A stretch of 64,000 nt of DNA from Christensenellaceae bacterium (GTDB lineage Bacteria > Bacillota > Clostridia > Christensenellales > DTU072). Position 1 is the stretch's first letter, and each line of letters begins with the position of its first letter. The position numbers and the translations under genes were made by a program. The stretch spans positions 10,392-74,391 of the forward strand of contig JAIRMA010000039.1 in assembly GCA_031259085.1 (NCBI GenBank), read 5' to 3'. The notes under the pieces are model-generated. The model saw only the letters and a list, made by a program, of their open reading frames with translations, was not told the DNA's origin and ran no database searches. Positions 3,297-63,197 of this stretch are shown piece after piece.

Positions 3297-3509
3297 TCCA
3301 CAGATTTAACACAGCTAAATTGCGGTCGTTAACCCTCCTATAACAATTTTGACATAAAACTAGCCATGTTAAATTCATGTCATATTTTCATGTCACAATA
3401 TATCATGTTTTTAGATAGAAATGTTTTAAAATCACTGAATCAAATGTTAGATTGGTAGCTTTAAGATTATATGACTTTTTCCATATAAATTAACACTGAT
3501 TACATTTAA

Positions 3510-3538
3510 TTGCAATCAACCATTGCATGTGATATAAT
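3510..3538 (+). promoter_or_regulatory. Promoter TTGCAA-17-TGaTATAAT for mscS
   Basis: TTGCAA at 3510-3515, a 17-nt spacer, TATAAT at 3533-3538 with TG at 3530-3531. This makes the track's TTG start at 3510 implausible. Confidence 0.6.
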
Positions 3539-3560
3539 AATATTTTATAAGGAGTCTACT

Positions 3561-4379
3561 ATGGGATGGGATGACATCACAAATGCAATTTTAGGTTTTT
3601 TTAAGAACTTTGGGACACGTGTCCTAGAGTCAATCGTCATTTTGCTCCTAGGTATTCTTGCAATTCGTATAATAGGGAAGATTCTAAGAGCGGTCTTCCA
3701 TCGTACTAAAACTGAATCAGCAGCGGCTTCTTTTGTAATATCACTAGTACGGGCTACCATTGCTTTATTTTTATTTTTTACAATCCTTAAAATACTAGGC
3801 ATTGATACAACAGGCATCGTGTCAATAGCGGCTGCAACAGGAATTGCAGTGGGCTTTGCTCTACAAGATAGCCTTTCTAATATTGCAAGTGGAGTCATAC
3901 TTTTATTTACAAAGCCATTTAAAGAATCTGACTTCGTAAAGATAGGATCTACTGAAGGGAAAATTTCAAAGGTTAATATAACGACGACAGAGATTATAAC
4001 CTCAGACAATGTCTTAATAATAGTGCCAAATAAACAAATAATTGGCACAGAAATATTTAATTATAGTAAACGGCGTACCCGCAGGATTTCAGTTAAAATC
4101 CCTGTTGCATATGAGGCCGATCCCGAAAAAGTCAAAGCTGTCTTATTGAATATTATTAACGAAGGTTTGAACGCATTAGCTTCTCCTGAACCATCTGTAT
4201 ATCCATCTTCATTTGATTCTTCATCTGTATCATATACCATGAAGTTTTGGGTTGAAACTGACAATTACTGGGATTCATATAATGCTATACATACTAAGGT
4301 ATTAAAGGGATTCAAGGAAAATAACATCGAAATCCCATACGATAAAATTACTATATTAAAGAGTTCTGGAGGTGAATAA
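3561..4379 (+). CDS. mscS: Small-conductance mechanosensitive channel (MscS family)
   Basis: AAGGAG SD lies 6 nt before ATG 3561. The protein has three TM helices followed by an MS_channel-like core (ALQDSLSNIASGVILLFTKPFKESDFVKIGSTEGKISKVNITTTEI). Confidence 0.85.
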   Translation: MGWDDITNAILGFFKNFGTRVLESIVILLLGILAIRIIGKILRAVFHRTKTESAAASFVISLVRATIALFLFFTILKILGIDTTGIVSIAAATGIAVGFALQDSLSNIASGVILLFTKPFKESDFVKIGSTEGKISKVNITTTEIITSDNVLIIVPNKQIIGTEIFNYSKRRTRRISVKIPVAYEADPEKVKAVLLNIINEGLNALASPEPSVYPSSFDSSSVSYTMKFWVETDNYWDSYNAIHTKVLKGFKENNIEIPYDKITILKSSGGE

Positions 4380-4831
4380 TGCTTAACTTACTATTATCAA
4401 TTCCAGTCTCATTAGGAGCTAACTGGTGGTTATATCATTTATTTTTAATATCATTAATAATTGTTATTGCACTTCTACTTAGGCGTTCATATAAGAAAAC
4501 ACCGTTAGCTGAAGGTAAACATCACTGTAATATTGCTGTAAAGCAATTAAACAAAGTCCTTTATGCAAAAGATAAGAGAAAAATGCGAATGCATTTGTAT
4601 GCAGGAAAGAATTATCTCATTTCAGCAAATAATGTCTTTACACAATATATTAAAGATTTTGGATATAATAATTTATCTGAACCAATAGCATTTATAACAG
4701 AGGCTTTAAATGAATTAGATTCGATCCTTAAGGATTTCTCTGACAAAACAATATTTGATATTGAAGAAAAAATTAAACTGATAGTAGATGCAATTGCTAA
4801 TTCAAATATAAATAATTTGGTAGTAGAATGA
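4379..4831 (+). CDS. Hypothetical membrane protein (150 aa)
   Basis: Its ATG overlaps the mscS TAA and its stop overlaps the plsX ATG (ATGA). It has N-terminal TM segments. Confidence 0.55.
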   Translation: MLNLLLSIPVSLGANWWLYHLFLISLIIVIALLLRRSYKKTPLAEGKHHCNIAVKQLNKVLYAKDKRKMRMHLYAGKNYLISANNVFTQYIKDFGYNNLSEPIAFITEALNELDSILKDFSDKTIFDIEEKIKLIVDAIANSNINNLVVE

Positions 4832-5859
4832 AAATACTTGTAGATGCATTTGGTGGTGACAATGCGCCCCATGAAATTATTAACGGCTCAATTGAGGCTC
4901 TGTGCTTTGATGATAAAATTAAGCTCGCATTATTAGGCGATGAAAATATTATAAAAGATGAACTGAAGAAATATTCTTATGATCATACTAGAATAGAAGT
5001 AATACATGCCCCCTTAATTATATCTAATGACGAATCTCCTACTGATGCAGTTCGGAAAAAAAAGGATTCATCAATTGTAAAGGGACTAACGCTACTAGGC
5101 TCAGATCCTCAATACAATGCGTTTGTCTCGGCTGGTAGCACAGGTGCTGTTCTTGTAAGTAGTTTTTTAATATTAAAATGCATAAAAGGCATTAGAAAAC
5201 CTGCCTTAGTTCCAGTTTTACCAACAATGAACGACGGTAATGTGCTACTCATTGATTGTGGGGCTAATGTGGATTGTCGTGCTAAAAATCTCGTTGATTT
5301 TGCTTATATGGGTGCAGCATATTCTTCGTCCGTTCTAAACGTCAAAAACCCCAGAATTGGGCTATTATCTAATGGTGCTGAAGACGAGAAGGGAAATGTG
5401 CTTAATAAAGAGGTGTTCCCATTGTTGAAAGCTACAAACTTGAATTTCGTTGGAAATGTTGAGGCTCGCGATATTTTGTCTGGACGGTTTGATGTAATCG
5501 TAGCAGATGGATTTAGTGGAAATATTGCGCTCAAATCTTCAGAGGGCGTAGCCATCATGCTGTTGGATTTAATAAAAAAGAATATATTATCTGGTGGGTT
5601 GCGCGCCAAAATAGGATATCTATTTCTAAAACCTGTATTCAAGAAAATCGCAAAAACTATGGATTATAATAATAACGGCGGCGCTATATTATTAGGGCTT
5701 AATAAACCTGTTGTTAAAGCACATGGCAGTTCAAAGGCTAAGTCAATAAGGGCATCTATTATACAAGCAAATTCTATAGCTGAATCTGCACTTATTCAAA
5801 ACATATCAGACTCTATTCTCAATGCAATGAAGGAACCTAATACTGAGGGCTATGAGTAA
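4828..5859 (+). CDS. plsX: Phosphate acyltransferase PlsX
   Basis: The N-terminus MKILVDAFGGDNAP and the GGAILLGLNKPVVKAHGSS motif are typical of PlsX. Confidence 0.92.
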   Translation: MKILVDAFGGDNAPHEIINGSIEALCFDDKIKLALLGDENIIKDELKKYSYDHTRIEVIHAPLIISNDESPTDAVRKKKDSSIVKGLTLLGSDPQYNAFVSAGSTGAVLVSSFLILKCIKGIRKPALVPVLPTMNDGNVLLIDCGANVDCRAKNLVDFAYMGAAYSSSVLNVKNPRIGLLSNGAEDEKGNVLNKEVFPLLKATNLNFVGNVEARDILSGRFDVIVADGFSGNIALKSSEGVAIMLLDLIKKNILSGGLRAKIGYLFLKPVFKKIAKTMDYNNNGGAILLGLNKPVVKAHGSSKAKSIRASIIQANSIAESALIQNISDSILNAMKEPNTEGYE

Positions 5860-6577
5860 ACACGCAAAAAACATACCTGTCCCTAAGTTTACAGATTCGC
5901 AGATTCTTAAGTTAGAGAATATAATTCAATATAAGTTCCAGGACCTAGCGCATTTAGAAGAAGCACTAACGCACGCCTCTTTAACTAACAACGCATCTAT
6001 ATCTTCATATGAGAGATTTGAATTTTTTGGTGACAGTATACTCGGGTTTATAGTAGCTGGTGAATTGTTTCATGCTTTCCCAGATGCTAATGTTGGTGAT
6101 TTAACAAGGGCTAAAAGCTACATCGTATCAAAAAATACATTGGCTCAGATAGTTGAAAAAATGGGAATAACTCGATTTTTATTTACAAATAAAGATGTTA
6201 ATCAGGTCATTAAAATCAGTAAAAAGGTTAGATCAGATATATTTGAATCCTTGCTCTGTGCAATCTATATTGATAGCAAAGATTTGTCTAACTGTACTAA
6301 TTTTGTTAACAGATTCTTAGGACATTTTTTAAAAATGAATATCTCAGATATTAGCAATTTAGACTATAAAAGCATTTTATATGAATACAATATAAAGCTC
6401 ACACTAAATTTAAAAGTTGAATTCTTGCACGATCTCAATCAAACAGGACATGAGTACACAGCAAAAATATTTAAAAGTGATGATCTGATTGCTGAAGCAA
6501 AAGCATCTACTAAAATTGATGCTGAAAAAAATGCATCTAAAATAGCGTTAAAAATACTAAATTTGCTGCCAAAATAG
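5852..6577 (+). CDS. rnc: Ribonuclease III
   Basis: RNase III signature ERFEFFGDSILG plus a C-terminal dsRBD-like region. It follows plsX, as in many Bacillota. Confidence 0.9.
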   Translation: MSKHAKNIPVPKFTDSQILKLENIIQYKFQDLAHLEEALTHASLTNNASISSYERFEFFGDSILGFIVAGELFHAFPDANVGDLTRAKSYIVSKNTLAQIVEKMGITRFLFTNKDVNQVIKISKKVRSDIFESLLCAIYIDSKDLSNCTNFVNRFLGHFLKMNISDISNLDYKSILYEYNIKLTLNLKVEFLHDLNQTGHEYTAKIFKSDDLIAEAKASTKIDAEKNASKIALKILNLLPK

Positions 6578-6616
6578 TATTTTCTATGCTATATCAATAA
6601 TATAAATAAAATAAGA

Positions 6617-6645
6617 TTGATATTTTTTAATTAATATCGTATAAT
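6617..6645 (+). promoter_or_regulatory. Promoter TTGATA-17-TATAAT
   Basis: TTGATA at 6617-6622, a 17-nt spacer, TATAAT at 6640-6645, upstream of the lipoprotein gene. Confidence 0.55.
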
Positions 6646-6707
6646 ATTTAGAGTGCCAAAACAAATCTTGATGATTGGCAATTCTCAATAAATAGGATGA
6701 TTAGAAG

Positions 6708-7439
6708 ATGAGAAATTTACATAAAATCTTAATTTTTGCATTTGTTATGATCCTGTGTTCTTCCATATTATTCTTAGTATCCTGCTCTGATGATCAGAAA
6801 ACGGATACAAATGAATCATCTCAACTGAAATCTATCGAAGTTGTTGAAGGACTAAACGAAGATATAATTGTAAATTCAAAATTTCCGTTAAATGGGAAGC
6901 TTAAAGTTACCTATAATAATGACGACGTACAATATTTATTGATAAATGACACAATGGTCGAAAATTTCAATTCATCTATAGTTGGTGAGCAAATTATAAC
7001 AATATCATTTGCTAATACAAAGGTATTACATCCTATAACAATAGTAAATCCAATCGTATCTGTTACTGTTGATACTGAAACAACTACATATAACTATACA
7101 ATCAACCAAGTATTCGATGTAGCATATTTGAATGTACAGCGTACAGTAGGTGACGTAGAAACAATACGAGTAACATCTGATATGGTGACAAAATTTTCTA
7201 CATTAAAAGTAGGTACATTCACTGTAGAAATTGAATTCGCTAATATAACAAAATCATATGACATTACTGTAATAGATGAAAATCCTGATTCAGATAATAG
7301 TGATCCTGGCGGCACAGATGATGGCCCCGGTGATGGTGGCCAGGGCGGCACTGATGATGGCTCCGGTGATGGTGGCCAGGGCGGCACTGATGATGGCCCT
7401 GGTGATGGTGGTCAGGGTGGAGGATTTGCTATATACTAA
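6708..7439 (+). CDS. Lipoprotein with Ig-like beta-rich repeats and a Gly/Asp-rich repetitive C-terminus
   Basis: Signal peptide with lipobox LVSC, and a C-terminal 3 x GGTDDG(P/S)GDGGQ repeat. Confidence 0.75.
   Translation: MRNLHKILIFAFVMILCSSILFLVSCSDDQKTDTNESSQLKSIEVVEGLNEDIIVNSKFPLNGKLKVTYNNDDVQYLLINDTMVENFNSSIVGEQIITISFANTKVLHPITIVNPIVSVTVDTETTTYNYTINQVFDVAYLNVQRTVGDVETIRVTSDMVTKFSTLKVGTFTVEIEFANITKSYDITVIDENPDSDNSDPGGTDDGPGDGGQGGTDDGSGDGGQGGTDDGPGDGGQGGGFAIY
7308..7415 (+). repeat. Three tandem 36-bp in-frame repeats
   Basis: The unit is ggcggcac(a/t)gatgatggc(c/t)c(c/t)ggtgatggtgg(c/t)cag. The copies differ at only a few positions and are locally GC-rich in an AT-rich genome. Confidence 0.95.
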
Positions 7440-7765
7440 TTATAAAAAACGGAGAATTAACGTCTTAATAATTATTTAAAAGTAGCAACACCAGTCTGAA
7501 TACAAATATGAATTAATTATATAGTTAAATTAGTTGATCATATTCAGTATGTTCATTTTACTTAAAACATTATAGCGCCGTTAGTGTGTTATTTCTATTA
7601 AAAATTCATACTTAAAACAAAATTTATATTATTATGAAATCGAATTTGTATACAGCTCCCCATATCTAATATCATTTTTATAATTCCATATTGCAAATGT
7701 ATGTTTTTAAAATGCGCTATGCTGTTTGAGCTAAGAATCATGCTATCACATAAAATAAAAAAAAA

Positions 7766-7796
7766 GATAAAAAACTCCAAAAAATGGAGTTTTTTA
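7766..7796 (-). terminator. Terminator downstream of rpsU (hairpin is symmetric)
   Basis: Stem aaaaactcca / tggagttttt with a 5-nt loop, flanked by T-runs when read on the minus strand. Confidence 0.7.
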
Positions 7797-7832
7797 TCTA
7801 GTACGTAAAATATATTTAAAAGGTAAAATTGC

Positions 7833-8009
7833 TTATTTATACATTCTTTTGCGTGCGACCTCAAGTTTTTTCTTTTTGCGGACGCTTGGTTTCTCATAGT
7901 GCTCTTTTCTTCTTAAATCGCCTATGATACCATCATTAGCACATTTCTTCTTCCAACGACGAATTGCGCTATCAAGGTTCTCATTTTCTTTGACATAAAC
8001 TGTTGACAT
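7833..8009 (-). CDS. rpsU: 30S ribosomal protein S21
   Basis: Starts [35 protein letters not shown] precedes ATG 8009, so the longer track ORF start at 8054 is rejected. Confidence 0.92.
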
Positions 8010-8174
8010 ATAATCACCTCCTTTTGTAAAAGAATGTAATATGCTTAAACGCATATATTAATTATGCATGTTTCTTTCGTTATTGTCAAATAATTTTAAA
8101 TGCCTTTTTTACATGTTTAATAATTCTATACATAACAACATTAAAGATTATCTCATGATGTTCTATAAAACTAG

Positions 8175-9566
8175 TTATTTTGTTTTTGCTTCAGATTCCG
8201 TGGGACTTTCATGTTCTTGAAATCGCACAAATCGTCCAAACCATCTGTAAATAATATCTTTTAACTGACCGTTTCTATGTTTTGCAATAGATAATGTTAC
8301 GTCATATTCTCCCATAGATTTCTCTTCCTCTTTTACTCTAGTTAAGAACATAACAATATCTGCATCCTGCTCAATAGCACCAGAATCTCTTAAATCACTA
8401 AGTTTTGGTAGCTTGTCAGAAGCCTCACGCATTTCAATCCCTCGAGACATTTGAGAGAGAACTATTACAGGGCATTCCAAATCTCTAGCCATAACCTTGA
8501 GTGTTCTGCTAATTTCCGCGACCTCTTGGACTTTATTCCCACTGTTTCGTGATTTTGCATTGCTATCACCACTCATGAGTTGTAAATAATCAATTATAAC
8601 TAAATCAAGTTGCCCCTGTACATTTCTCAATTTTTGACATTTAGCAAAAATTGCTCCTGGTGTTTGTACACTAGAATCATCTACATATATTCTACTGCGT
8701 TTTAATTGAAGTGTAGCCCCCCACAATCTGTTTTGATCACTTGCAACTACCGATGAATTTGTAAGCATATACATATCTAGATTTTGCATGGAGCTAATCA
8801 TTCTTTGTGCTAATTGCTCTGCTGGCATTTCTATTGAAAATAGAGCACATACCCTTTTCTTATCAAAATCATTTTGACTTGTTAGTAGATTGCCAGCAAT
8901 GTTTAAAGCAAAGGAAGTTTTTCCAACAGATGGCCTTGCTGCTAAAATAATGAGATCACCTTTTTGTAAACCACTTGTAACATTATCTAGTATTGGAAAT
9001 CCCGTGGGAACCCCGCGCAATGCTGACTTATTAGCCGTAGCAACATTTAATCGATTTATCAATACGTCTACTGCCTTTGATATATGCTCGAGCGATCCTC
9101 GTCTATCTACAGAATTAATCTCATATAATTTTTGAGTAATTTTATTTATTAATAGTAGTGGTTCCTCAGATGCGTATGCCTTTTGAATGCCATCATTGCA
9201 AGCATCGATTATTCGTCTTAATAAATAATTTCTATGCAATGAGTTATAATATGCTTTGTAATTAGCAGATGAAGGAATAAAATTAGTCAGATAGTATAAA
9301 TAATCAAATATATCAATTTCAGCTTTTTTTGTCATTACCAATTGGTCATTAACAGTCACCAAATCAACATTAACCCCTTCTGAATGCACTTGTTGAATTG
9401 CATTAAATATCCCCTTGTGTCGTTCAATAGTGAAATAATCCTCTGTCATCATGTCACAAACATCATTTACAACAGAAGGATCTATTAAGAAACTGCATAA
9501 AATTGATTTTTCAGCTTCTACACTAGAGGGTGGCTCCCTATGTTTAGTTGTTTTAATATTATCCAT
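8175..9566 (-). CDS. dnaB: Replicative DNA helicase DnaB
   Basis: PPSSVEAEKSIL N-terminal motif, Walker A ARPSVGKTSFALN and DYLQLM. AGGGAG SD is present. Confidence 0.93.
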   Translation of the reverse strand: MDNIKTTKHREPPSSVEAEKSILCSFLIDPSVVNDVCDMMTEDYFTIERHKGIFNAIQQVHSEGVNVDLVTVNDQLVMTKKAEIDIFDYLYYLTNFIPSSANYKAYYNSLHRNYLLRRIIDACNDGIQKAYASEEPLLLINKITQKLYEINSVDRRGSLEHISKAVDVLINRLNVATANKSALRGVPTGFPILDNVTSGLQKGDLIILAARPSVGKTSFALNIAGNLLTSQNDFDKKRVCALFSIEMPAEQLAQRMISSMQNLDMYMLTNSSVVASDQNRLWGATLQLKRSRIYVDDSSVQTPGAIFAKCQKLRNVQGQLDLVIIDYLQLMSGDSNAKSRNSGNKVQEVAEISRTLKVMARDLECPVIVLSQMSRGIEMREASDKLPKLSDLRDSGAIEQDADIVMFLTRVKEEEKSMGEYDVTLSIAKHRNGQLKDIIYRWFGRFVRFQEHESPTESEAKTK

Positions 9567-13201: not shown

Positions 13202-14104
13202 ATGAAGAAGATACTGGAAAAAATAGTTTCCGTAACTTTAGCGTTTATTTCACTTTTATTCGTCATCATAATGTTGATCGTCATGTTTAAACCTGAATAT
13301 GCCGAGAATATGAACAACCCCTTAGTTAACGTGCTTATAATAATCTTTGCCTGCATATATGCAATTTTGTCCGGGATAAACATTGCGCGCGCATTCAGCG
13401 ATTCTGAAAGAATAAACAGCATACTTTTATTTAAAGGAAAAGATAGTGCAACCAAAGCATCTATTTCTGTAGTTAAAAAGACTGCAAAAGTTGCTACAGC
13501 GCAAATTGAAGGCGCAAAACTCAAAAAAGCTATACTTTTAGTCGATGAAAATAACGACGTTAAGATGAAGGTAGATCTCAAAATTAATGATGATGACGTA
13601 GATAAAATCATTAATTCTGTGCGGGCTAATATAATTACTACATTTGATGAGGTGTTAGGATTTAGATTCAAATCAATTGACTTCAGTGTTGTTAATCTTA
13701 AGAATCCTCAATATATACCTAACCCAGAAATGATAAAAGCCGAAAAAGATAAATACTTGAAAGAACAAAATGCAATCAAAGCTGCTGAAGAAGCTAAGCG
13801 TTTAGCCACTAGCACTGAAGAGGAAACGCCTGTAGTTGATGCAATTACAACAGAGGATATACAATCTATAGTAACCCAAGAAATTTTAACTGAGGGTGAA
13901 GCCCCCGAAGTGATCACTGCCTCTCTTGAAGAAGATGATGTTACACCTCCTGGGGCGGCAATTGTGATAGAGAACTTAGAGCCCCCTGTGGATGAAGCTA
14001 CACTAACAGAAGACGCTCTTGAATCACCTATCAGTACAGATGATGCAGAGATTATCTCAGAAGATAGTGATATAGCAGCTCCTACTGCAACTGATGAGGG
14101 ATAA
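13202..14104 (+). CDS. Membrane protein with two N-terminal TM helices and an acidic tail; possibly AmaP/Asp23-anchor-like
   Basis: GGAGG SD. The alternating beta-like central region resembles Asp23/AmaP family proteins from memory only. Confidence 0.55.
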   Translation: MKKILEKIVSVTLAFISLLFVIIMLIVMFKPEYAENMNNPLVNVLIIIFACIYAILSGINIARAFSDSERINSILLFKGKDSATKASISVVKKTAKVATAQIEGAKLKKAILLVDENNDVKMKVDLKINDDDVDKIINSVRANIITTFDEVLGFRFKSIDFSVVNLKNPQYIPNPEMIKAEKDKYLKEQNAIKAAEEAKRLATSTEEETPVVDAITTEDIQSIVTQEILTEGEAPEVITASLEEDDVTPPGAAIVIENLEPPVDEATLTEDALESPISTDDAEIISEDSDIAAPTATDEG

Positions 14105-14148
14105 TAACTAATTAATTTGCTTTCTTAAATTATTTATTAACATGATAG

Positions 14149-14175
14149 ATGCGTACATGAATAACATGTACGCAT
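14149..14175 (+). terminator. Hairpin after 13202..14104 (weak U-tract)
   Basis: Perfect 11-bp stem atgcgtacatg / catgtacgcat with loop aataa, followed only by tta. Confidence 0.4.
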
Positions 14176-14310
14176 TTACATAATATAATTGTATTCGAAA
14201 GTGGAAAACATGAGGCTCCTTGAAATGACTACAATCTTTTCAAAAAAAATAATACGTTTTTCTTAGCTATGCAATATTGCTTTTGCTATTTAGAAATATA
14301 GGCAGGCATA

Positions 14311-16572
14311 ATGAGTGATCTGAAATCAATTGCTTCACGCGTAAAATACTTGCGTGAGGTATTCAATTTATCATATGAAGAAGTGGCAATGGCCACAAAC
14401 ACAACTACCGAGCTATACATCGCTGCTGAAAATGGCGACGTTGATTTTACGTTCAGTTTTTTACAAAAATTATCTAAATATTATTCTGTTGATTTAGCCG
14501 AAATAATTTCTGGAGACATGCCAAAACTATCAGGATTTGAAATAGTGCGGGGCGGAGATGGAATGCCCTATGAAAGACGTACTGGTTTCAAATATTTGCA
14601 TCTTGCTCCTTTATTCAAAAATAAATTAATGGAGCCTTTTACGGTAACTGCAGAATACGATCCTAATACAGTTGATAAAGCAATGCCTTTATCTTTTCAT
14701 AACGATGATGAATTTGACTATATATTAGAAGGTAAACTTAAGTTTAGAATAAATAATTATGAAACCATCCTAGGCCCTGGCGATTCTGTATACTATGATG
14801 CGCGTCTCCCACATGGAATGGTCGCATATGAGGGTAATTGCAGGTTTTTAGCGCAGGTCATAAAACGTGGTACTGGCAGTAGCGAGTTGGAAATAATACA
14901 TTCAGCGGAAGCTGATAGTATAGTTTCTTTTAAGGAAAAAGATGCTGTATACAATGCGTTTGTCACTACCATATTAAATGAATCTGGAGAAATTGAAAAG
15001 CTAGATTTTCATCCTCCACAGAATTTCAACTTTGCCTATGACGTTGTTGATGCAATTGCAACAAAGTCGCCAAATAAACCAGCTATGTTATGGGTTTCTG
15101 CAGATAAAAAAGAAAAGCTATTCACTTTTGCAGACATGAAGCACTTAAGTGACAAATGTGCGAATTTCTTTATCTCGTTAGGAATTAAAAAGGGTGATAA
15201 AGTCATGTTGACACTAAAACGTTATCACCAATTCTGGCCTGCTATATTAGGTTTACATAAAATAGGTGCAATTGCTATTCCCGCTACCCACTTGTTAACT
15301 AAAAAAGACTTTGAATACCGATTTAATGCGGCAAATATAAGTGCAATAGTTATTACAACAGACGGTTCAGCAATAGAAGAATGTGAGGCGGCTCTGCCAT
15401 CATCACCTACTATGAAAATCAAGATCTCATCTGGGCCTAATAAACGCGAAGGTTGGATAGATTTTGACTCGTCTGTTAATGCTGCATCCGAATGCCTAAC
15501 GCGTATTGAAAATGATATAAATGACACGATGATAATGTATTTTACCTCAGGCACTACCGGGTATCCTAAGATTACAGTGCACACATATAAATATCCTTTA
15601 GGGCATTTTTCAACAGCAAAATATTGGCATCGTGTTGATCCAGACGGATTACACTTTACTATTTCAGATACTGGATGGGCTAAATCAGTATGGGGGAAGT
15701 TATATGGGCAATGGCTCTTAGAGGGTTGTATATTCACGTATAACTTTGAGCGGTTTAGTGCAGCTGATATTCTCACTATGTTTGAAAAGTATAATATAAC
15801 TACCTTTTGTGCTCCGCCTACTATGTATAGATTTTTTATAAAAGAAGATTTAACTAAATATAATCTATCATCTGTTAAGAATGCTACCATTGCTGGTGAA
15901 GCATTAAATCCTGAGGTTTATGAACAATTTTATAAGGCTACAGGCCTTAAATTAAGAGAGGGATTTGGGCAAACTGAAACGACTTTAACTATTTTCAATC
16001 AGTTTGGAAGTGAACCAAAGCCTGGTTCAATGGGAAAACCATTCACAGCACAATATGATATAGTGTTATTAAATTCAGATGGCGAACCTGTAAAAACTGG
16101 TGAAACTGGTGAAATCGCAATATTAACAAGCAATGGTATTCCGTACGGTATGTTTAATGGTTATTATGATCCTACTGACACTGAATTCGCTTGGCACGAT
16201 GGCGTTTATCATACTGGGGATTTAGCATGGATGGATGAGGATGGCTATGTTTGGTATGTAGGAAGAGTAGATGATGTCATAAAATCGTCTGGATACAGAA
16301 TTGGCCCATTCGAGGTTGAATCCGTAATTATTGAATTGCCTTATGTTCTTGAATGCGCAGTGACAGGTATCCCCGATCCTACAAGAGGTCAGATTATTAA
16401 GGCAACAATTGTCCTAACAAAAAATACAGTAGGGACTGAGGAATTAAAAAAAGAAATTCAAAACTACGTAAAAGATCATACAGCACCGTATAAATACCCA
16501 CGTGTTGTAGAATTCGTAGAATCCTTACCTAAAACAATTAGTGGTAAAATAATGAGGAAAGACTTGCGATAA
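14311..16572 (+). CDS. Fusion protein: XRE-type HTH + cupin domain + AMP-forming acyl-CoA synthetase
   Basis: N-terminus has an HTH_3-like stretch (IASRVKYLREVFNLSYEEVAMATN..LQKLSKYYSVDLAEII), followed by a cupin (DEFDYILEGKLKF..GPGDSVYYDARLPHG). The rest carries ANL motifs YFTSGTTGYPK, GFGQTET, YHTGD and PKTISGKIMRKDLR. Confidence 0.85.
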   Translation: MSDLKSIASRVKYLREVFNLSYEEVAMATNTTTELYIAAENGDVDFTFSFLQKLSKYYSVDLAEIISGDMPKLSGFEIVRGGDGMPYERRTGFKYLHLAPLFKNKLMEPFTVTAEYDPNTVDKAMPLSFHNDDEFDYILEGKLKFRINNYETILGPGDSVYYDARLPHGMVAYEGNCRFLAQVIKRGTGSSELEIIHSAEADSIVSFKEKDAVYNAFVTTILNESGEIEKLDFHPPQNFNFAYDVVDAIATKSPNKPAMLWVSADKKEKLFTFADMKHLSDKCANFFISLGIKKGDKVMLTLKRYHQFWPAILGLHKIGAIAIPATHLLTKKDFEYRFNAANISAIVITTDGSAIEECEAALPSSPTMKIKISSGPNKREGWIDFDSSVNAASECLTRIENDINDTMIMYFTSGTTGYPKITVHTYKYPLGHFSTAKYWHRVDPDGLHFTISDTGWAKSVWGKLYGQWLLEGCIFTYNFERFSAADILTMFEKYNITTFCAPPTMYRFFIKEDLTKYNLSSVKNATIAGEALNPEVYEQFYKATGLKLREGFGQTETTLTIFNQFGSEPKPGSMGKPFTAQYDIVLLNSDGEPVKTGETGEIAILTSNGIPYGMFNGYYDPTDTEFAWHDGVYHTGDLAWMDEDGYVWYVGRVDDVIKSSGYRIGPFEVESVIIELPYVLECAVTGIPDPTRGQIIKATIVLTKNTVGTEELKKEIQNYVKDHTAPYKYPRVVEFVESLPKTISGKIMRKDLR

Positions 16573-16578
16573 TATTAT

Positions 16579-16618
16579 AAAACTGCTTAAATTTAGGGAC
16601 CCTATTTAAGCAGTTTTT
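16579..16618 (+). terminator. Rho-independent terminator
   Basis: 14-bp stem aaaactgcttaaat / atttaagcagtttt ending in a T-run. Confidence 0.8.
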
Positions 16619-17045: not shown

Positions 17046-19517
17046 TTATTTTTGATAATCATCCTTTTTAAACTTTCTTTTCTTTAGGAGTTCAAATACG
17101 AATTTTGTAATACCTTTTATTGTATGACCATTAAAAGCCCTTAAAACATTAGCCGTCGCTTTGTATGATACATTACCTGAACTCATCATATAAAAGTTTC
17201 TTATTGGCATATAACCAGCGCCCTTTTTTGTCATTTTCTTTTGTACTCTGGTTGCGTCTTTAGCTAGCAGTGAAACACTGCTCTTTTTGAATACATATTT
17301 AAAAAGCTTTCCAAACCAGTTGCCACGATCTAACTCATCAACTGTGCTATTAAAATTGAAATTACCAATCCGCGGAGGTACATAAATATTAGGCGACCTG
17401 CCTAGTAATGCTTTGAATTGATCATCAGGGATACTATCAACTTGGGCAATATTATAGTAGGCAGGTAATTCATTAATCCTGGATTTTAGATTTGCATTGC
17501 CAATGCAATTAACCTTTCCATATGCCCTTATGTCCCTTGATGAGGCGCCAATTAATATTTCGAATTCGCCATTTTCTACTTGCCAATCACTCGTTTCTAT
17601 ATCATAAAAGGCAAAAGCGCGTCTATCAAGATCCATCGTAACAGTTTTCTTTTGGCCCACATCTAGAGTAACTTTAAAAAACCCTTTCAATTCTTTATCT
17701 GGCCTAAAAACAGAGGATTCTAGATCCTTGACATACAGTTGCACTATTTCCTTGCCCTCAAGGCTCCCAATATTTTCGACATCAATAGAGACAGTTAAAA
17801 TATCATCCGCTGTTATTTCAGTGGCAGAAAGTTTAAGGTCAGAGTATTTAAACTTAGTGTATGACAAGCCGTATCCGAATGGATAACGCACTTGTTTCCA
17901 GGCAGAATCATAATATCGATATCCAACATAAACACTCTCGCGATATTCTGCGATAATATTTCCATAATATTGGCTCGCTAGGTAATCATTTATGTCAATT
18001 GGATATGTTTCTGCTAGTTTTCCAGACGGGTTTACATTGCCAAAGAGAACATCGTAAATTGCCTCAGCACAACCTTCACCGCCTAAATATACGTTAATCA
18101 AGCCTTTAAATTTTTCAGGATGCGAAATTTTAACTGGGGACCCGCCTGTTAGAATTACTACTATATTTGTATTAACAGCATAAATAGCATCTAACAAGGC
18201 CTCATGCTCAGGAGGCATGTTAATGTGCGTTCGATCAAACGATTCAGATTCATAATCTTCTGGTAATCCAACAAACAATAGTACTAGTGAATTATTAGCT
18301 GCTATCTCAACGGCTTCTTCGATCTTGTTATGAGCCTTCCCGCCTATTCTCTTCTTGTTTATGTTGCCGGCTTCTAGTTTATATCCGTCAGCATAGGCAA
18401 ATTTAATATCATGATCCGTTAATACATCTAAAAAGCTCCTGACTTTTCGAGGGATCACCTGACTAGACCCAGAACCTTGTAATCGCATAGTTAACGCCAA
18501 TTTGCCTATTACTGCTACAGATTCAAGTGAATCTTGCATTATTGGTAAGATATCTCCCTCATTTTTTAATAGGACAAAAGACTCAGTAGCAACACGACGT
18601 GCAAGATCATGATGGGCCTCATAATTAGCTCTGTATTCATCTACTACTTTAGAATTATTAATTAATGTAAGTATCCTTCTGACACAATCATCTAATAATT
18701 TAATGTCTAATTCGCCGTAATTTACTGCATCAACAATCTTTTTATCATTTTCACCATTCGATGATGGCATCTCGATATCTAGGCCGGCTCTAATACCTTC
18801 TACCCTATCATTAACTGCACCCCAGTCCGAAATAACACAACCTTTAAATCCCCATTTCTCTCTTAGAATGTCATTTAATAATAATTTGTTATCACTACCA
18901 TGTACTCCGTTGATTAGGTTATAACAACACATGACAGTTAGAGGATTAGCTTTCTTTACTGCTATTTCAAAAGCAGTTAAATAAATCTCATGCAAAGCCC
19001 GCTCATCAATCTCAGATGATGATATATGTCTATTTTGTTCTTGACTATTAGCTGCATAGTGTTTTAACGAGGCTCCTACACCAGTGCTTTGCAAACCATT
19101 TATGTATGCGGCACCTAATTCGCCGGACAAGATAGGATCTTCACTAAAATATTCGAAATTTCTCCCACACAAAGGTGATCTCTTTATATTAACACCAGGG
19201 CCTAAAAGTACTTGTACTCCTTGACAGAGGCACTCCTCTCCTAATGCTACACCTACTTCGTAGAGTAGTTCTCTGTCCCACGAGCAGGCTGTAGTGACCG
19301 CAGTAGGAAAGCAGGTCGCAGGCTTTGAGGTTTTTAATATATTCCCAACCCCACTGACCTCAAGTTCACGTCTAAGTCCATGTGGGCCATCAGAAAAAAA
19401 TATCGAGGGGATCCCGTGTTTTTTAATAGGTGTTGATTCCCAAAGATTAACACCAGAACACAATGCGGCTTTTTCTTCTACAGAAAGTCTGCTAATTATA
19501 TCATCAATATCTATCAT
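17046..19517 (-). CDS. Glycoside hydrolase family 3 beta-glucosidase (cytoplasmic, no signal peptide)
   Basis: GH3 motifs GPGVNIKRSPLCGRNFEYFSEDP, KHYAANSQE and nucleophile region VISDWGA, with an Fn3-like C-terminal region. Confidence 0.9.
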   Translation of the reverse strand: MIDIDDIISRLSVEEKAALCSGVNLWESTPIKKHGIPSIFFSDGPHGLRRELEVSGVGNILKTSKPATCFPTAVTTACSWDRELLYEVGVALGEECLCQGVQVLLGPGVNIKRSPLCGRNFEYFSEDPILSGELGAAYINGLQSTGVGASLKHYAANSQEQNRHISSSEIDERALHEIYLTAFEIAVKKANPLTVMCCYNLINGVHGSDNKLLLNDILREKWGFKGCVISDWGAVNDRVEGIRAGLDIEMPSSNGENDKKIVDAVNYGELDIKLLDDCVRRILTLINNSKVVDEYRANYEAHHDLARRVATESFVLLKNEGDILPIMQDSLESVAVIGKLALTMRLQGSGSSQVIPRKVRSFLDVLTDHDIKFAYADGYKLEAGNINKKRIGGKAHNKIEEAVEIAANNSLVLLFVGLPEDYESESFDRTHINMPPEHEALLDAIYAVNTNIVVILTGGSPVKISHPEKFKGLINVYLGGEGCAEAIYDVLFGNVNPSGKLAETYPIDINDYLASQYYGNIIAEYRESVYVGYRYYDSAWKQVRYPFGYGLSYTKFKYSDLKLSATEITADDILTVSIDVENIGSLEGKEIVQLYVKDLESSVFRPDKELKGFFKVTLDVGQKKTVTMDLDRRAFAFYDIETSDWQVENGEFEILIGASSRDIRAYGKVNCIGNANLKSRINELPAYYNIAQVDSIPDDQFKALLGRSPNIYVPPRIGNFNFNSTVDELDRGNWFGKLFKYVFKKSSVSLLAKDATRVQKKMTKKGAGYMPIRNFYMMSSGNVSYKATANVLRAFNGHTIKGITKFVFELLKKRKFKKDDYQK

Positions 19518-19891: not shown

Positions 19892-22354
19892 TTAATTTTC
19901 AAGTGATAGGAGAACCTTTTCTTGTTTTTTGTTTTTTCTTCGTGCTTTAATAATTTTACCTAATCCCCTAAAAAATTTACCATTGATTACATCTATCAAA
20001 CCTGCTACCATATTTAGTGTAAATTGCCCACCGCTAGTTGTACCAAATGCGCGCAAAGGATTTGAATAAAGCATGTCTCTTATAAAACTCTTAAATGATA
20101 CAGTTGAATCATCATTTCCTTTAAGTAGTAATTTTACACCTAAATTGATAACTCTATACATTAACCTACCAAAAAATCGTACTCTAGCATCAGATATGGT
20201 CGATTCCCATCTAATAGGCTCTGTCAAATAGTCGCTTGAGGGGATAGGCGAATCTAATAAAACTTCAAAAGCCTCGTTTGATGCTGATCCCTTAAAACAA
20301 TAGTACTCACCCACAGCCCCAGCTAAATATGGGAGTTCAGTCTCAGGCGCACTAATCTGAATGGAAGTTGATAATTTTATGCTAGCACAGCTACTGCCTA
20401 TTAAAATATCATATTTCCCATCTTCTACTACCCAATCCTTAATTTTGGTATTATAATATGAGAATGCACGTTTATTAAGGTGGAATTCAACAACCGTTGA
20501 TTCCCCTGGTTGAAGGTCAACTTTACAAAATCCTTTGAGCTCTTTTTTTGCACGAAATACCTTGCTGTTTTTTAACCCCACGTATAACTGTACAACTTCC
20601 TTGCCCTCACGTGATCCGATATTTTTAATGCAGGCTGTGACAGTGACTTCGTCATCAACAGTAGCTATGTCTGATGATATTACAATATCTGAATACACAA
20701 ATTCAGTATATGATAGTCCAAATCCAAATGGGAACCTCACAGGTATATCAGCTGTATCATAATACCTATATCCAACAAATATGCTTTCTCTATACTCAAC
20801 AGTAGCAGGCCCTTCTGGAAAATATTTAAAGCAAGGTGTGTCACTTAGTTTAATTGGAAATGTTTCTGCTAGCTTTCCTGAAGGATTAACTATACCAAAA
20901 ACTAAATCGTGAACAGCCAAACCACCTGCTTGACCAGGCAAATACATCTGTAAAAGGGCTGATATCCCGTTAATCCATGGCATCTCAACAGGTGCGCCAC
21001 CAAACATGACTACCGCAATATCCTTATGTGTGCCGATAAGAGCCTCTATTAGTGCAATTTGGTTTTTTGGAATTGACATATGCTTTCTGTCAAGACCCTC
21101 GGTCTCAAGGGTTAATCCGATAAATAAAAGGATATGTTTGTCGTTTGAATTAGCTAGATTAACTGCCTCATCTATTAATTTATAGTTGACCTCTTCAGTT
21201 TTAAAATCATAGCCATCAGCATACTTGAATTTTACGTGCTTTGAGATAAACGCGTCGTATGGGGTCACAACAATATTTGCATTGATTTGAGATGAACCAC
21301 CACCCTGATACAGAGGTGTTTTGAATAGATTGCCTATTACAGTTATCTCTTCGTCTAAAGAAAATGGTAAGAGATTAAGTTCATTTTTAAGCAACACTGC
21401 ACCCTCACAGGCCACTTTTTTTGCTAAATAATGGTGGGCTTCACGATCGTATTTAAAATCATTTGGCTCTAATGAATTAATTATCAGATTTGCTCTCAAT
21501 AACCTTCGTACACATTTATCAAGATCCTCAATAGTTAGGGCCTTAGACTCTACCGCATCAATTATTGCATAAACGCTCTCTGCAGATCCACCTGGCATCT
21601 CTAAATCAAGTCCTGCTTTTAAAGCTTTAACTCTATCAAATATTGCCCCCCAGTCTGTCATTACATATCCATCAAAACCCCACTCATCTCTTAGTATGTC
21701 TGTTAATATCTTTTTGTTTTCGCTAGCATATTCACCATTGATTTGATTGTATGAGCACATTATAGTATAAGGTTTTCCTTCTTTTACTGGAGTTTCAAAA
21801 CTCGCTAGATATATCTCCCGCAAAGCGCGCTCATCAACTACTGCATTTATCCTCAATCTGTCAGATTCCTGGTTATTTAAAGCATAGTGCTTAAGTGATG
21901 TACCAGGGCCCTTTTCTTGAACGCCTTGTATAAAACTAGCACCTATTTTACCGCTAAGATATGGATCCTCAGAATAATATTCAAAATTGCGTCCACATAA
22001 GGGTGAACGTTTAATGTTAACACCAGGACCTAAAACAACCCCCAAGCGCTCTTCATAAGCTTCTTCCCCTATGCCATTGCCAACTTGCTTAATTAAATCA
22101 ACATCCCAGGTGCTCGCCATAACGCAAGCAGCCGGGAAACAAGTGGCTTTTATGCTGTCATTTATACCCAAATGATCTGAATCTGCATCCTGCTTTCTGA
22201 GTCCATGAGGTCCGTCAGATACCATATAGGGCTTTATTCCACGTTTAGCTAATCCTCTTGTATACCAAAACTTTCTACCAGAACAAAGCAATGCCTTCTC
22301 TGGAACGGTCAATTCATTCAAAATTTCTTCAACTTTTTTATCTATGTCATTCAT
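19892..22354 (-). CDS. Glycoside hydrolase family 3 beta-glucosidase (paralog of 17046..19517)
   Basis: Same motif set (GPGVNIKRSPLCGRNFEYYSEDP, KHYALNNQE, VMTDWGA) and collinear with the neighbouring gene. Confidence 0.9.
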   Translation of the reverse strand: MNDIDKKVEEILNELTVPEKALLCSGRKFWYTRGLAKRGIKPYMVSDGPHGLRKQDADSDHLGINDSIKATCFPAACVMASTWDVDLIKQVGNGIGEEAYEERLGVVLGPGVNIKRSPLCGRNFEYYSEDPYLSGKIGASFIQGVQEKGPGTSLKHYALNNQESDRLRINAVVDERALREIYLASFETPVKEGKPYTIMCSYNQINGEYASENKKILTDILRDEWGFDGYVMTDWGAIFDRVKALKAGLDLEMPGGSAESVYAIIDAVESKALTIEDLDKCVRRLLRANLIINSLEPNDFKYDREAHHYLAKKVACEGAVLLKNELNLLPFSLDEEITVIGNLFKTPLYQGGGSSQINANIVVTPYDAFISKHVKFKYADGYDFKTEEVNYKLIDEAVNLANSNDKHILLFIGLTLETEGLDRKHMSIPKNQIALIEALIGTHKDIAVVMFGGAPVEMPWINGISALLQMYLPGQAGGLAVHDLVFGIVNPSGKLAETFPIKLSDTPCFKYFPEGPATVEYRESIFVGYRYYDTADIPVRFPFGFGLSYTEFVYSDIVISSDIATVDDEVTVTACIKNIGSREGKEVVQLYVGLKNSKVFRAKKELKGFCKVDLQPGESTVVEFHLNKRAFSYYNTKIKDWVVEDGKYDILIGSSCASIKLSTSIQISAPETELPYLAGAVGEYYCFKGSASNEAFEVLLDSPIPSSDYLTEPIRWESTISDARVRFFGRLMYRVINLGVKLLLKGNDDSTVSFKSFIRDMLYSNPLRAFGTTSGGQFTLNMVAGLIDVINGKFFRGLGKIIKARRKNKKQEKVLLSLEN

Positions 22355-28167: not shown

Positions 28168-29874
28168 TCAACCTTTAATATTCAGAATAGTTTGTATTAT
28201 ATCTTTTCGTGGTATAATCTCAGATTGAGCATGATTTCTAAGTTTAATCTCTACAGAATCTGTAGCTAAAAGTTTAGGACTTAATACAACTCTAATAGGA
28301 ATTCCCATTAGTTCACTATCAGTGAATTTAACTCCAGGAGAAACACTCCTATCGTCTAAAATTGTTTCTATCCCTGCTTTAACAAACTCATCGTATATTT
28401 GATGTGTTAAATCCTTTACATCTTCATTGTCATATCTAAGTGGACATAAATACACATCCCATGGCGCTATCGAAATTGGCCAGTTTAATCCTTTTTCATC
28501 TGATTTGTCCTCAGCTACAGACGCAAGAGCACGGCCTACTCCTATTCCGTAACAGCCCATTATTGGATTGACCAAAACACCATTTTTGTTTAGCACCTTC
28601 ATGTTCATCGAAGTAGTATACTTAGTACCTAGTTGGAATATATTGCCTACTTCAATCCCGTTTTTTACAGTTAAGGGCTTCCCGCAAACACTGCATCTCA
28701 TTCCATCATTAACCTTTGTTATGTCAACAAAATTTGAGATCTTGAGGTCTCGGTTTACTGAAACACCACTAATATGATAATCAGGCTTATTCGCACCTAT
28801 GACCATCCCAGAGCAACCTCTAAGCGAATTATCATATACTATAACTCTATTAGCTGATTCACTAAGACCGAGTGGGCCTATGTTGCCAGCTACTATGTCT
28901 AGAGAATCCGACAACGATGCAGGCACAACATCGCATTTAATAATTTTCTTCAATTTTGCTTCGTTCACTTCTAAGTCACCCCGCAAAAAACAAACAACTT
29001 GTTTAGTGCTAGATTTAATATTGTAAACTACAGCTTTGATTGTCTTGACACTAGTAATCTTAAGGAATTCTGCTACTTCTGATATCTCTTTTGCGCTCCC
29101 AGTAAAGACCTCGCGCATTGTTTGATTATCGCAACTATTATCATTAGGAGTTATAATTCCTTCAGCTACTTCCATATTAGCTTTATAATCACAGTGTGAG
29201 CATATAACTAATTTATCTTCACCAATATCCGACAAAAACATAAACTCATGTGAAATCTTACCACCCATCATGCCTGAATCAGATTTAACAGCTATCACAT
29301 TATCAAGCCCTATTCTCTTGAAAATCCGAACATATGCATCGAATACCTTTTCATAATATTCTTCCAAATCATCTTGTGTCAGATGAAATGAATATGCATC
29401 CTTCATTACGAATTCCCTAACACGAATTAGACCACCACGAGATCTGGCTTCATCTCTGAATTTAGTCTGTATCTGATAAATCATGCAAGGTAGCTGTACA
29501 TAACTCGTTATATTGTCCCTTGCAAAGTGTACTGCGGCTTCTTCATGAGTCATGCCTAGGACTAAGCTATGTCCAGTGCGATCGGTGAACCTTATGAGTT
29601 CATCACCTATCGATGAATATCTCCCAGATTCATCCCAAAGCTCCTTTGGCATTACTACAGGGAATGAACATTCCTGGCCATCTATTCGATTCATTTCTTC
29701 ACGAATTATTTGCTCAATCTTTAGAGCTATCCTCTGAGCGGCCATCCCAAAACTCCAAATCCCTCCCGCTACAGCTTTGATAAAACCTGTACGCATTAAT
29801 AGAGCATGGCTCTTAATAACAGCATCAGCTGGATTCTCTTTTGTTCTAGCCCCCACTAACTTAGATAAGTACAT
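28168..29874 (-). CDS. proS: Prolyl-tRNA synthetase (bacterial type with insertion/editing domain)
   Basis: Class II aaRS motifs (FRDEARSRGGLIRVREF; GCYGIGVGRAL). The length and INS region are typical of bacterial ProS. Confidence 0.92.
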   Translation of the reverse strand: MYLSKLVGARTKENPADAVIKSHALLMRTGFIKAVAGGIWSFGMAAQRIALKIEQIIREEMNRIDGQECSFPVVMPKELWDESGRYSSIGDELIRFTDRTGHSLVLGMTHEEAAVHFARDNITSYVQLPCMIYQIQTKFRDEARSRGGLIRVREFVMKDAYSFHLTQDDLEEYYEKVFDAYVRIFKRIGLDNVIAVKSDSGMMGGKISHEFMFLSDIGEDKLVICSHCDYKANMEVAEGIITPNDNSCDNQTMREVFTGSAKEISEVAEFLKITSVKTIKAVVYNIKSSTKQVVCFLRGDLEVNEAKLKKIIKCDVVPASLSDSLDIVAGNIGPLGLSESANRVIVYDNSLRGCSGMVIGANKPDYHISGVSVNRDLKISNFVDITKVNDGMRCSVCGKPLTVKNGIEVGNIFQLGTKYTTSMNMKVLNKNGVLVNPIMGCYGIGVGRALASVAEDKSDEKGLNWPISIAPWDVYLCPLRYDNEDVKDLTHQIYDEFVKAGIETILDDRSVSPGVKFTDSELMGIPIRVVLSPKLLATDSVEIKLRNHAQSEIIPRKDIIQTILNIKG

Positions 29875-51665: not shown

Positions 51666-51751
51666 TGGTGGGAGGAGGTGGATTCGAACCACCGAAGTTT
51701 TCCAACAACAGATTTACAGTCTGGCCCCTTTAGCCACTCGGGAATCCTCCC
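51666..51751 (-). tRNA. tRNA-Tyr (anticodon GTA), class II with a long variable arm, CCA encoded
   Basis: The reverse complement folds by hand: acceptor GGGAGGA/TCCTCCC, anticodon loop CTGTAAA, variable stem GTT-GGAA-AAC, T-arm GGTGG-TTCGAAT-CCACC, then ACCA. Confidence 0.9.
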
Positions 51752-63120: not shown

Positions 63121-63197
63121 CGAGGCGTAGCGCAGTTGGGCAGCGCGCTTGGTTCGGGACCAAGAGGCCATGGGTTCAAATCCCGTCACCTCGACCA
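63121..63197 (+). tRNA. tRNA-Pro (anticodon CGG), CCA encoded
   Basis: Hand fold: acceptor CGAGGCG/CACCTCG (one C-A mismatch), D arm GCGC-AGTTGGGCA-GCGC, anticodon arm CTTGG-TTCGGGA-CCAAG, T arm ATGGG-TTCAAAT-CCCGT, then ACCA. Confidence 0.85.

Follow-up and report, generated by a model that had tools for sequence, protein, structure and literature searches.

An acyl-CoA synthetase fused to an acidic helix-turn-helix and cupin module: a candidate activating enzyme for isoleucine and valine salvage

Introduction

What does a helix-turn-helix (HTH) and cupin module, the architecture of a small-molecule-sensing transcription factor, do when it is joined to a complete metabolic enzyme? The question is raised by a gene at positions 14311-16572 of a 64,000-nucleotide stretch of DNA (the window; contig JAIRMA010000039.1 of assembly GCA_031259085.1, positions 10,392 to 74,391 of the forward strand) from a Christensenellaceae bacterium. 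Its product runs from an XRE-type HTH through a cupin into an AMP-forming acyl-CoA synthetase (ACS). A sequence-only reading of this DNA had considered the protein a candidate trigger enzyme, which by analogy with BirA could regulate transcription in response to its own substrate or acyl-AMP intermediate. Our analysis of the gene and its relatives points to a MacS/MbcS-type CoA ligase for short branched-chain fatty acids that would serve the salvage of isoleucine (Ile) and valine (Val) and that carries, fused to its N-terminus, a family-specific partner module made of a PuuR-like HTH and a metal-site cupin; we give this reading as a whole a probability of about 0.5.

It has been known from classical physiology since the 1960s that rumen and gut anaerobes convert 2-methylbutyrate to Ile, and isobutyrate to Val, by reductive carboxylation. 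The enzyme that activates these acids has, to our knowledge, no gene firmly assigned to it. In the literature that we searched, no paper linked the rumen reductive-carboxylation route to this family of ACS or to the HTH-cupin proteins that partner it, and none dealt with the fusion, with its control by T-boxes or with its action as a trigger enzyme. No functional description of the family was found there either; the fusion combines known kinds of parts.

Results

The fusion is genuine and widespread

The gene and the parts of its product are as follows.

14311..16572, + strand: open reading frame (ORF) for the HTH-cupin-linker-ACS fusion; ATG start, 753 amino acids (aa) plus stop, uninterrupted
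14311..14511, + strand: XRE-type five-helix HTH-like domain, aa 1-67, net charge -4
14533..14865, + strand: cupin beta-barrel, aa ~75-185, with the putative metal triad His130/Glu134/His168
14698-14700, 14710-14712 and 14812-14814, + strand: codons of the putative triad His130/Glu134/His168, all invariant residues
14866..14994, + strand: unconserved linker, aa 186-228, predicted to be disordered at aa 188-208
14995..16569, + strand: MacS/MbcS-type acyl-CoA synthetase, aa 229-753, with PF00501 at nucleotides 15055-16167 and PF13193 at nucleotides 16312-16548
15541..15570, + strand: ANL motif A3, FTSGTTGYPK, the ATP/phosphate loop, aa 411-420, from the translation and the homologue alignment
15667..15684, + strand: motif DTGWAK, aa 453-458, in which residue 457 is Ala, read from the sequence
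16546..16548, + strand: catalytic lysine K746 of motif A10, in PKTISGK (aa 740-746), from the translation and the homologue alignment

Pfam profiles were compared with the window protein. The HTH_3 match (aa 11-65) reached 22.4 bits against a gathering score of 23, and the Cupin_2 match that lies C-terminal to it (aa 126-180) passed with 40 bits. AMP-binding (aa 249-619, 193 bits) and AMP-binding_C (aa 668-746, 79.5 bits) were both above gathering. An HTH profile, whether PF01381 (HTH_3), PF12844 (HTH_19) or PF13560 (HTH_31), is present in most homologues. An AlphaFold model computed from a 120-sequence alignment (mean predicted local distance difference test score, pLDDT, of 85) contained a five-helix XRE fold, a cupin barrel with a pLDDT of about 90, a disordered linker falling below 50 at residues 188-208, and a confidently modelled ACS. 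ANL motifs A3, A5, A7, A8 and A10 are intact in the translation, where we also read GQTE (553-556), YHTGD (633-637) and GRVDD (651-655), and across 120 aligned homologues the ANL motifs are invariant or nearly so.

The full architecture is common to at least 120 clusters, counted at the 90% identity level in a large protein collection, whose members are 746-792 aa long and 55-100% identical to the window protein. A fused protein of 100% identity was found in one Christensenellaceae metagenome-assembled genome (MAG), and one fused homologue sits on a complete 2.39-Mb scaffold. These findings rule out an assembly artefact or two wrongly joined ORFs, and the domain content ascribed to the protein by the sequence-only reading, an XRE HTH and a cupin in one polypeptide with a complete AMP-forming synthetase, is thereby confirmed along with its wide occurrence. 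Source annotations of the fused proteins are generic ('AMP-binding protein', 'acetyl-CoA synthetase'). Split forms exist, and in a crude clustering by ACS-domain similarity they fell apart from the fused forms, every one of which was placed in a single cluster, consistent with a single fusion event.

The HTH-cupin module is tied to one type of acyl-CoA synthetase

Searches with aa 1-190 returned many standalone relatives of about 185 aa and 34-50% identity, which share R10, R15, Y36, E40 and G42 as well as the invariant His130, Glu134 and His168. We collected 86 loci from contig look-ups of relatives and a scan of one genome per species. The module was tied to a MacS/MbcS-type ACS in 75 of these 86 loci (fused in 19, directly upstream on the same strand in 56), in a sample that is biased, as it represents the best 80 of at least 569 pattern-derived hits. 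The two genes of a split pair are separated by -59 to +285 bp (median about 12 bp), and in 18 cases they overlap. Hosts include Clostridia (Oscillospiraceae, Christensenellaceae and others), Coriobacteriia, Victivallales, a Planctomycete and Methanomassiliicoccales archaea. Module and enzyme thus make up a two-gene unit that is very conserved and of which the window gene is the fused form, and the link between module and enzyme is far tighter than the sequence of the window could have shown.

A second adenylate-forming ligase also partners relatives of the module. Where no ACS is adjacent, HTH-cupin relatives were found next to a gene for biotin protein ligase in L002 (2587-3932), L003 (519-1864), L030 (63-1556) and L019 (4168-6555). 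The ligase is HTH-less and overlaps the module gene by 4 bp in L002 and L003; it is divergent and HTH-less in L030, and is a BirA with its own HTH_11 in L019. At another site (L004-L006, about 5000-8240, from a freshwater MAG), a split pair lies between proC and proB/proA in an arginine/proline biosynthesis cluster, with no T-box and in a different amino acid setting.

T-box leaders and neighbouring genes of relatives point to isoleucine and valine supply

Many relatives are preceded by T-box leaders. Rfam model RF00230 scored above gathering in 7 loci, and motif scans together with reading of the specifier loop identified the specifier AUC (Ile) before about 26 units and GUA (Val) before 6, about 32 units in total. 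No specifier for any amino acid other than Ile or Val was seen among the T-box leaders read. Tandem fused paralogues in five loci (L073, L074, L075, L080 and L082) carry an Ile T-box before the first copy and a Val (GUA) T-box before the second. The same tandem layout was seen in L077, where the second copy follows a Val T-box; the first leader is lost at the contig end and its specifier is unreadable. In L075, the second (Val T-box) fused paralogue, at 3345-5633, is split into two ORFs by a frameshift, as a pseudogene, or through assembly error.

The idea of an operator palindrome shared upstream of all 83 distinct loci was discarded: the hairpins that recur there are T-box terminators. Five loci (L035, L037, L041, L043 and L045) have Ile leaders, ~60-250 nt before the HTH-cupin gene, in which Stem I is normal and the specifier is AUC. 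Their antiterminator box, AAGTGGAATCATTCGG, is degenerate and they score below Rfam gathering; they may represent a variant T-box class.

Genes for the alpha, beta and gamma subunits of a 2-oxoacid:ferredoxin oxidoreductase (POR_N/PFOR_II, TPP_enzyme_C and POR), together with a CbiA/NUBPL-type nucleoside triphosphatase (NTPase), adjoin the pair in about 7-11 loci. The order in the Christensenellaceae locus L080 is fused (Ile), fused (Val), NTPase, oxidoreductase, and NfnAB-like genes are present at 4 loci. Given the Ile and Val T-boxes and the adjoining oxidoreductase genes, the enzyme would most likely activate 2-methylbutyrate or isobutyrate for reductive carboxylation.

The P-loop NTPase itself lies between the ACS and oxidoreductase genes in about 11 loci (for example L080, 6527-7186, and L079, 8369-9091) and may be a maturation factor or an Fe-S carrier.

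The catalytic half resembles enzymes acting on short branched acids

The closest match of aa 229-753 in the PDB was 3ETC from Methanosarcina acetivorans, aligned end to end with 654 bits (E = 2e-195), followed by ACSM2A. True acetyl-CoA synthetases, in contrast, scored only about 170-257 bits. The best NCBIfam model was MbcS (NF047394), with 427.6 bits against an equivalog cut-off of 850; by these profile scores, the catalytic half is assigned to the MbcS subfamily but not as an equivalog. Purified S. aureus MbcS is selective for 2-methylbutyrate and isobutyrate, and supplies primers for FabH (PMC10026030). From homology, the T-box specifiers and pocket residue 457, we infer activity on 2-methylbutyrate or isobutyrate for the present family.

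The motif DTGW[G/A]K lines the acyl pocket in acetyl-CoA synthetases. At residue 457, fused-clade units behind an Ile T-box have Gly (7-8 of 8) and those behind a Val T-box have Ala (5/5). Over all units, the Ile type has Gly in 17, Ala in 6 and Met in 2, and the Val type has Ala in 5 (Fisher p = 0.003, uncorrected for phylogeny). Ala457 of the window protein agrees with the Val type of the fused clade, yet Ala is also found in 6 of 25 Ile units overall, and for this reason the substrate of the window enzyme is not firmly assignable. An attempt to call the Ile or Val type from overall identity failed, as every comparison gave about 60-64%.

Six split-type synthetases (L034, L042, L047, L049, L054 and L067) have Met at the position equivalent to 457, and those in L034 and L049 stand behind Ile T-boxes. 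Met at this pocket position could mean a smaller substrate, for example propionate feeding 2-oxobutyrate.

The HTH-like domain departs from DNA-binding relatives

The fold and sequence similarities of the module do suggest a regulator. The nearest curated family is the repressor PuuR, with a weak full-length alignment (27.5 bits, equivalog 211) in which the positions of the His/Glu/His triad are also kept, and the best Foldseek hit is an HTH_3 regulator structure, 1Y9Q. However, Foldseek comparison over both domains also found HppE, Psf4, HEPD and MPnS (E = 4e-14 to 1e-10), as close as 1Y9Q. These are enzymes of HTH-like plus cupin layout that are not known to bind DNA. H130, E134 and H168 align with the His/Glu/His of HppE, its Fe(II) triad.

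Surface features of the HTH were then compared. Net charge, which is only a proxy for DNA binding, was -2 to -10 over the HTH region (66 residues) in 86/86 loci, with a mean of -6.3 and a window value of -4, in comparison with +1 for PuuR and +4 for SutR; other window proteins are non-acidic. R10, R15, Y36, E40 and G42 are conserved in the HTH, the buried Y36 and E40 being invariant. Conservation is among the lowest at positions 33, 34, 37 and 38, which are exposed on the recognition helix. Canonical DNA-contact positions are occupied by Glu/Glu/Leu/Lys in the consensus and by Thr/Glu/Ile/Ala in the window protein, and the loop between helices 3 and 4 reads E-x-D45-F46; in XRE proteins that bind DNA, such as the 434 repressor, this loop is normally basic. 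Helix 3 is rich in Glu, and the domain differs from the neutral or basic HTH, with polar or basic residues in recognition helix and loop, that would be expected of a PuuR-like factor. The module is nevertheless under constraint: R15, G42, H130, E134, G141, G157, D158 and H168 are invariant in 120 fused proteins, and it is conserved in both tandem paralogues.

Operators were also looked for. No operator in 14105-14310 was conserved between the window and relatives 85% and 76% identical, a comparison of limited power. The only conserved palindrome in this region, which the sequence-only reading had suggested searching for an operator, changes its arm spacing in the 85% relative (see below), and the other palindromes there are AT-rich and of low information content. 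In Coriobacteriia, whose upstream regions lack a T-box motif match, no motif rose above shuffled background, again with limited power. Self-regulation of transcription in the manner of BirA is thus left unsupported, given the acidic HTH, the variable or acidic helix positions, the lack of a conserved operator and the T-boxes in many relatives.

The window copy belongs to a sub-clade with no T-box

The window gene is one of eight sub-clade loci (window, L087/L088, L089, L090, L091, L094, L095 and L096) whose fused proteins are 61-85% identical. Its flanks contain the following features.

13202..14104, + strand: upstream partner gene, conserved in the sub-clade; 300-aa protein of no known family
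14149..14175, + strand: perfect 11-bp inverted repeat ATGCGTACATG-aataa-CATGTACGCAT in the upstream spacer, not followed by a T-run
16583..16618, + strand: intrinsic-terminator-like hairpin CTGCTTAAAT...ATTTAAGCAG followed by TTTTT, 11 nt past the stop, read from the sequence

No Pfam or PDB entry matched the product of 13202-14104, which has two N-terminal transmembrane helices, a conserved domain of ~110 aa and a tail that is acidic and of low complexity. In 8/8 sub-clade loci, the gene immediately upstream on the same strand codes for a homologue of 240-370 aa, other neighbours being variable, and the gene is absent from the other 86 loci. None of the 8/8 sub-clade loci examined has a T-box. 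At the window gene, none was detected at E<=1 with Rfam or by motif search, and the Rfam scan of the 64-kb window returned no T-box anywhere, no leader of another kind close to the gene, and only two tRNAs (51669-51751, - strand; 63121-63194, + strand). The sub-clade has lost the T-box and has a gene for a membrane protein upstream instead. A prolyl-tRNA synthetase gene in the window (28168-29874, - strand) is also devoid of a T-box, and this AT-rich Christensenellaceae-like lineage may have few or no T-boxes.

A spacer of 206 bp that contains a hairpin separates the upstream gene from the ACS gene. The arms of the repeat at 14149-14175 are kept in L087, the 85% identical relative, with a loop of ~27 nt as against 5 nt here, and L089 (76%) has a different hairpin at this place. 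The difference in arm spacing between the window and L087 suits an RNA hairpin and not an operator for a dimer; 14149-14175 is more likely a hairpin in the RNA after the upstream gene than an operator. The gene had been described as standing alone between two terminators, of which the downstream one, a strong hairpin with a T-run after the stop, stands; the upstream hairpin has no T-run, and the gene before it is a conserved partner in the sub-clade.

PepF and DnaB genes lie upstream of the ACS gene, and plsX is located in the same window. Downstream are two tandem GH3 glycosidase paralogues of 823 and 820 aa (17046-19517 and 19892-22354, both - strand), each with an Fn3-like domain; the synteny of this pair extends to L087 and L089, the closest relatives. 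Elsewhere in the sub-clade, genes for the alpha and beta parts of a class I fumarate hydratase-like enzyme adjoin the fused ACS, at 10241-11739 in L091, where they overlap its stop codon, and at 1832-3327 in L096.

Discussion

How the enzyme and its module would work together

Homology, together with regulation and context conserved in relatives, makes it probable at the level of the family that the enzyme is a branched short-chain acid:CoA ligase for Ile and Val salvage; for the T-box-less window copy, the same role is somewhat less certain. The ACS would convert 2-methylbutyrate and/or isobutyrate, with ATP and CoA, to the acyl-CoA, which a ferredoxin-dependent 2-oxoacid oxidoreductase would reductively carboxylate to the 2-keto acid of Ile or Val. 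Volatile fatty acids would in this way be salvaged into branched-chain amino acids, a process described for rumen anaerobes. More tentatively, the module may be a sensor of a small ligand, probably a carboxylate bound at the His/Glu/His site, which would most likely act on the attached enzyme or via protein contacts, as allosteric or assembly control. We favour such a sensor over an operator-binding trigger enzyme, while holding it with rather less than even confidence.

A broader possibility, which we regard as more speculative again, is that the acidic HTH-like plus cupin module is an unrecognised, widespread partner that regulates adenylate-forming ligases and does not bind DNA. It would sense a carboxylate or an amino acid at its metal site and gate the enzyme by protein contact, mainly in MacS-type ACS and occasionally in biotin protein ligases, across bacteria and archaea.

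Several observations weigh against salvage by a ligase whose module does not bind DNA. On the side of the enzyme, the window gene has no detectable T-box, and no oxidoreductase gene was seen among the annotated ORFs of the window, most of whose 64 kb is unannotated; its role is consequently transferred from relatives 55-64% identical. Residue 457 does not separate Ile from Val units cleanly outside the fused clade; Ile units as a whole have Gly, Ala and Met (G17, A6, M2). On the side of the module, most family members pass XRE HTH profiles, the nearest curated family is a repressor, operons commonly start with a repressor gene, and orphan HTH-cupin genes occur in 11/86 loci, all of which would fit a transcription factor; net charge, moreover, is an indirect measure. 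The bias of the locus sample belongs here as well.

Alternative explanations

In a first alternative, the HTH-cupin part would bind an operator and the fusion would report the status of substrate, acyl-AMP or product to transcription, as BirA does. Enzyme and XRE HTH share one architecture, with most homologues passing HTH_3, HTH_19 or HTH_31; the module aligns with PuuR, triad included, and has 1Y9Q as its top Foldseek hit. The regulator-first order is common in operons, module relatives adjoin biotin protein ligase genes in L002/L003, L019 and L030, and the window sub-clade, having no T-box, needs some other control, so that a trigger enzyme might matter most in lineages such as this one. 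Nevertheless, we consider it unlikely, since the HTH charge is -2 to -10 in 86 loci where PuuR and SutR have +1 and +4, contact positions are non-canonical with E-x-D-F in a normally basic loop, neither an operator shared with the 85% and 76% relatives nor a motif in Coriobacteriia was found, and the regulation that is visible is by T-box. The proposal of a trigger enzyme was right about the fused HTH, cupin and synthetase, gained no support for its DNA-binding mechanism, and had missed the supply of branched-chain amino acids.

If the doubt concerns the enzyme, short acids, branched or straight, might be activated for another purpose: primers of branched-chain fatty acids, catabolism, or plain activation of acetate or propionate, the module acting as outlined above. 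MbcS makes primers for FabH (PMC10026030), source annotations read 'acetyl-CoA synthetase', the window copy has plsX in the same window and neither a T-box nor an oxidoreductase among annotated neighbours, and the L004 pair sits in an arginine/proline cluster. T-box control by tRNA-Ile and tRNA-Val and the adjacency of 2-oxoacid:ferredoxin oxidoreductase genes in relatives argue instead for amino acid supply, and 654 bits to MacS against about 170-257 to true acetyl-CoA synthetases for a MacS-like enzyme, so that such other uses appear distinctly improbable.

Two further ideas about the module have very little likelihood in our view. It might be catalytic in the manner of HppE, Psf4 and HEPD, acting on the acid or acyl-CoA as, for example, an isomerase or epimerase, and the Foldseek values of 4e-14 to 1e-10 to these proteins and MPnS do cover the two-domain fold and a 2-His-1-carboxylate site. 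An identical triad is present in the regulator PuuR, however, the hosts are strict anaerobes with no phosphonate genes noted among annotated neighbours, and the proposed pathway needs no extra chemical step. The module is also retained in Val-type units, which act on an achiral substrate, and a racemase or epimerase role of the cupin was rejected on this ground. Alternatively, in the fused proteins the module might be a functionless relic of a chance fusion, in line with the unconserved and disordered linker and with the clustering of fused forms that fits one fusion event. The eight residues invariant in 120 fused proteins indicate clear constraint, the module is kept in both tandem paralogues, and neither a ratio of nonsynonymous to synonymous substitution rates (dN/dS) near 1 nor frequent truncation was seen in it.

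Implications

The salvage pathway is of interest because the Ile and Val T-boxes on paralogous units, the neighbouring oxidoreductases and the homology to MacS/MbcS nominate a specific and very common gene family for the activating step, and suggest a simple Gly/Ala switch in the pocket. A subfamily annotated as 'XRE transcriptional regulators' emerges as the almost obligate partner of one enzyme type, with an HTH whose surface does not resemble that of DNA binders. There would be value in either outcome, be it a true DNA-binding acyl-CoA synthetase or an HTH-cupin module re-used as a regulator of an enzyme. A gating module would amount to a new kind of end-product or substrate control at the first step of branched-chain amino acid salvage. 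The genes are abundant in Christensenellaceae and Oscillospiraceae, taxa relevant to host health and rumen nutrition.

Comparison with known systems

The catalytic half resembles MacS (3ETC) end to end, and with it S. aureus MbcS, in having all ANL motifs and, in all likelihood, short branched acids as substrates. The solved 580-aa chain of 3ETC aligns with the catalytic half only. Neither MacS nor MbcS is known to have an HTH-cupin module. MbcS supplies primers for fatty acids, whereas the window family would serve amino acid synthesis, under T-box control in relatives.

With PuuR- and SutR-type factors the module shares its order of HTH then cupin, its size of about 185 aa, a weak full-length profile similarity to PuuR and the same triad positions. 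It differs from them in an acidic HTH in place of one of +1 or +4, in helix and loop residues of a non-contact type, in that no operator was found, and in being coupled or fused to an ACS nearly always. BirA, PutA and NadR are comparable as trigger enzymes in architecture only, an adenylate-forming enzyme of the BirA kind and an HTH being present in one polypeptide; relatives of the module adjoin biotin protein ligases, which is a further point in common with BirA, and the idea that the state of an enzyme sets an output is attractive. BirA, however, has a winged HTH and a defined operator, whereas here there is no evident operator or DNA binding and a cupin sensor is added.

The layout of an HTH-like alpha domain followed by a cupin, with an aligned metal triad, is shared with HppE, Psf4, HEPD and MPnS, which offer a precedent for an XRE-like domain that is not known to bind DNA. 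Identity to them is about 19-20%, and their oxygen-dependent phosphonate chemistry, genomic context and host physiology are different. Finally, the relatives resemble T-box-controlled branched-chain genes and the rumen route in having Ile or Val T-boxes upstream and 2-oxoacid:ferredoxin oxidoreductase genes downstream, a pattern from which the window copy departs in having no T-box.

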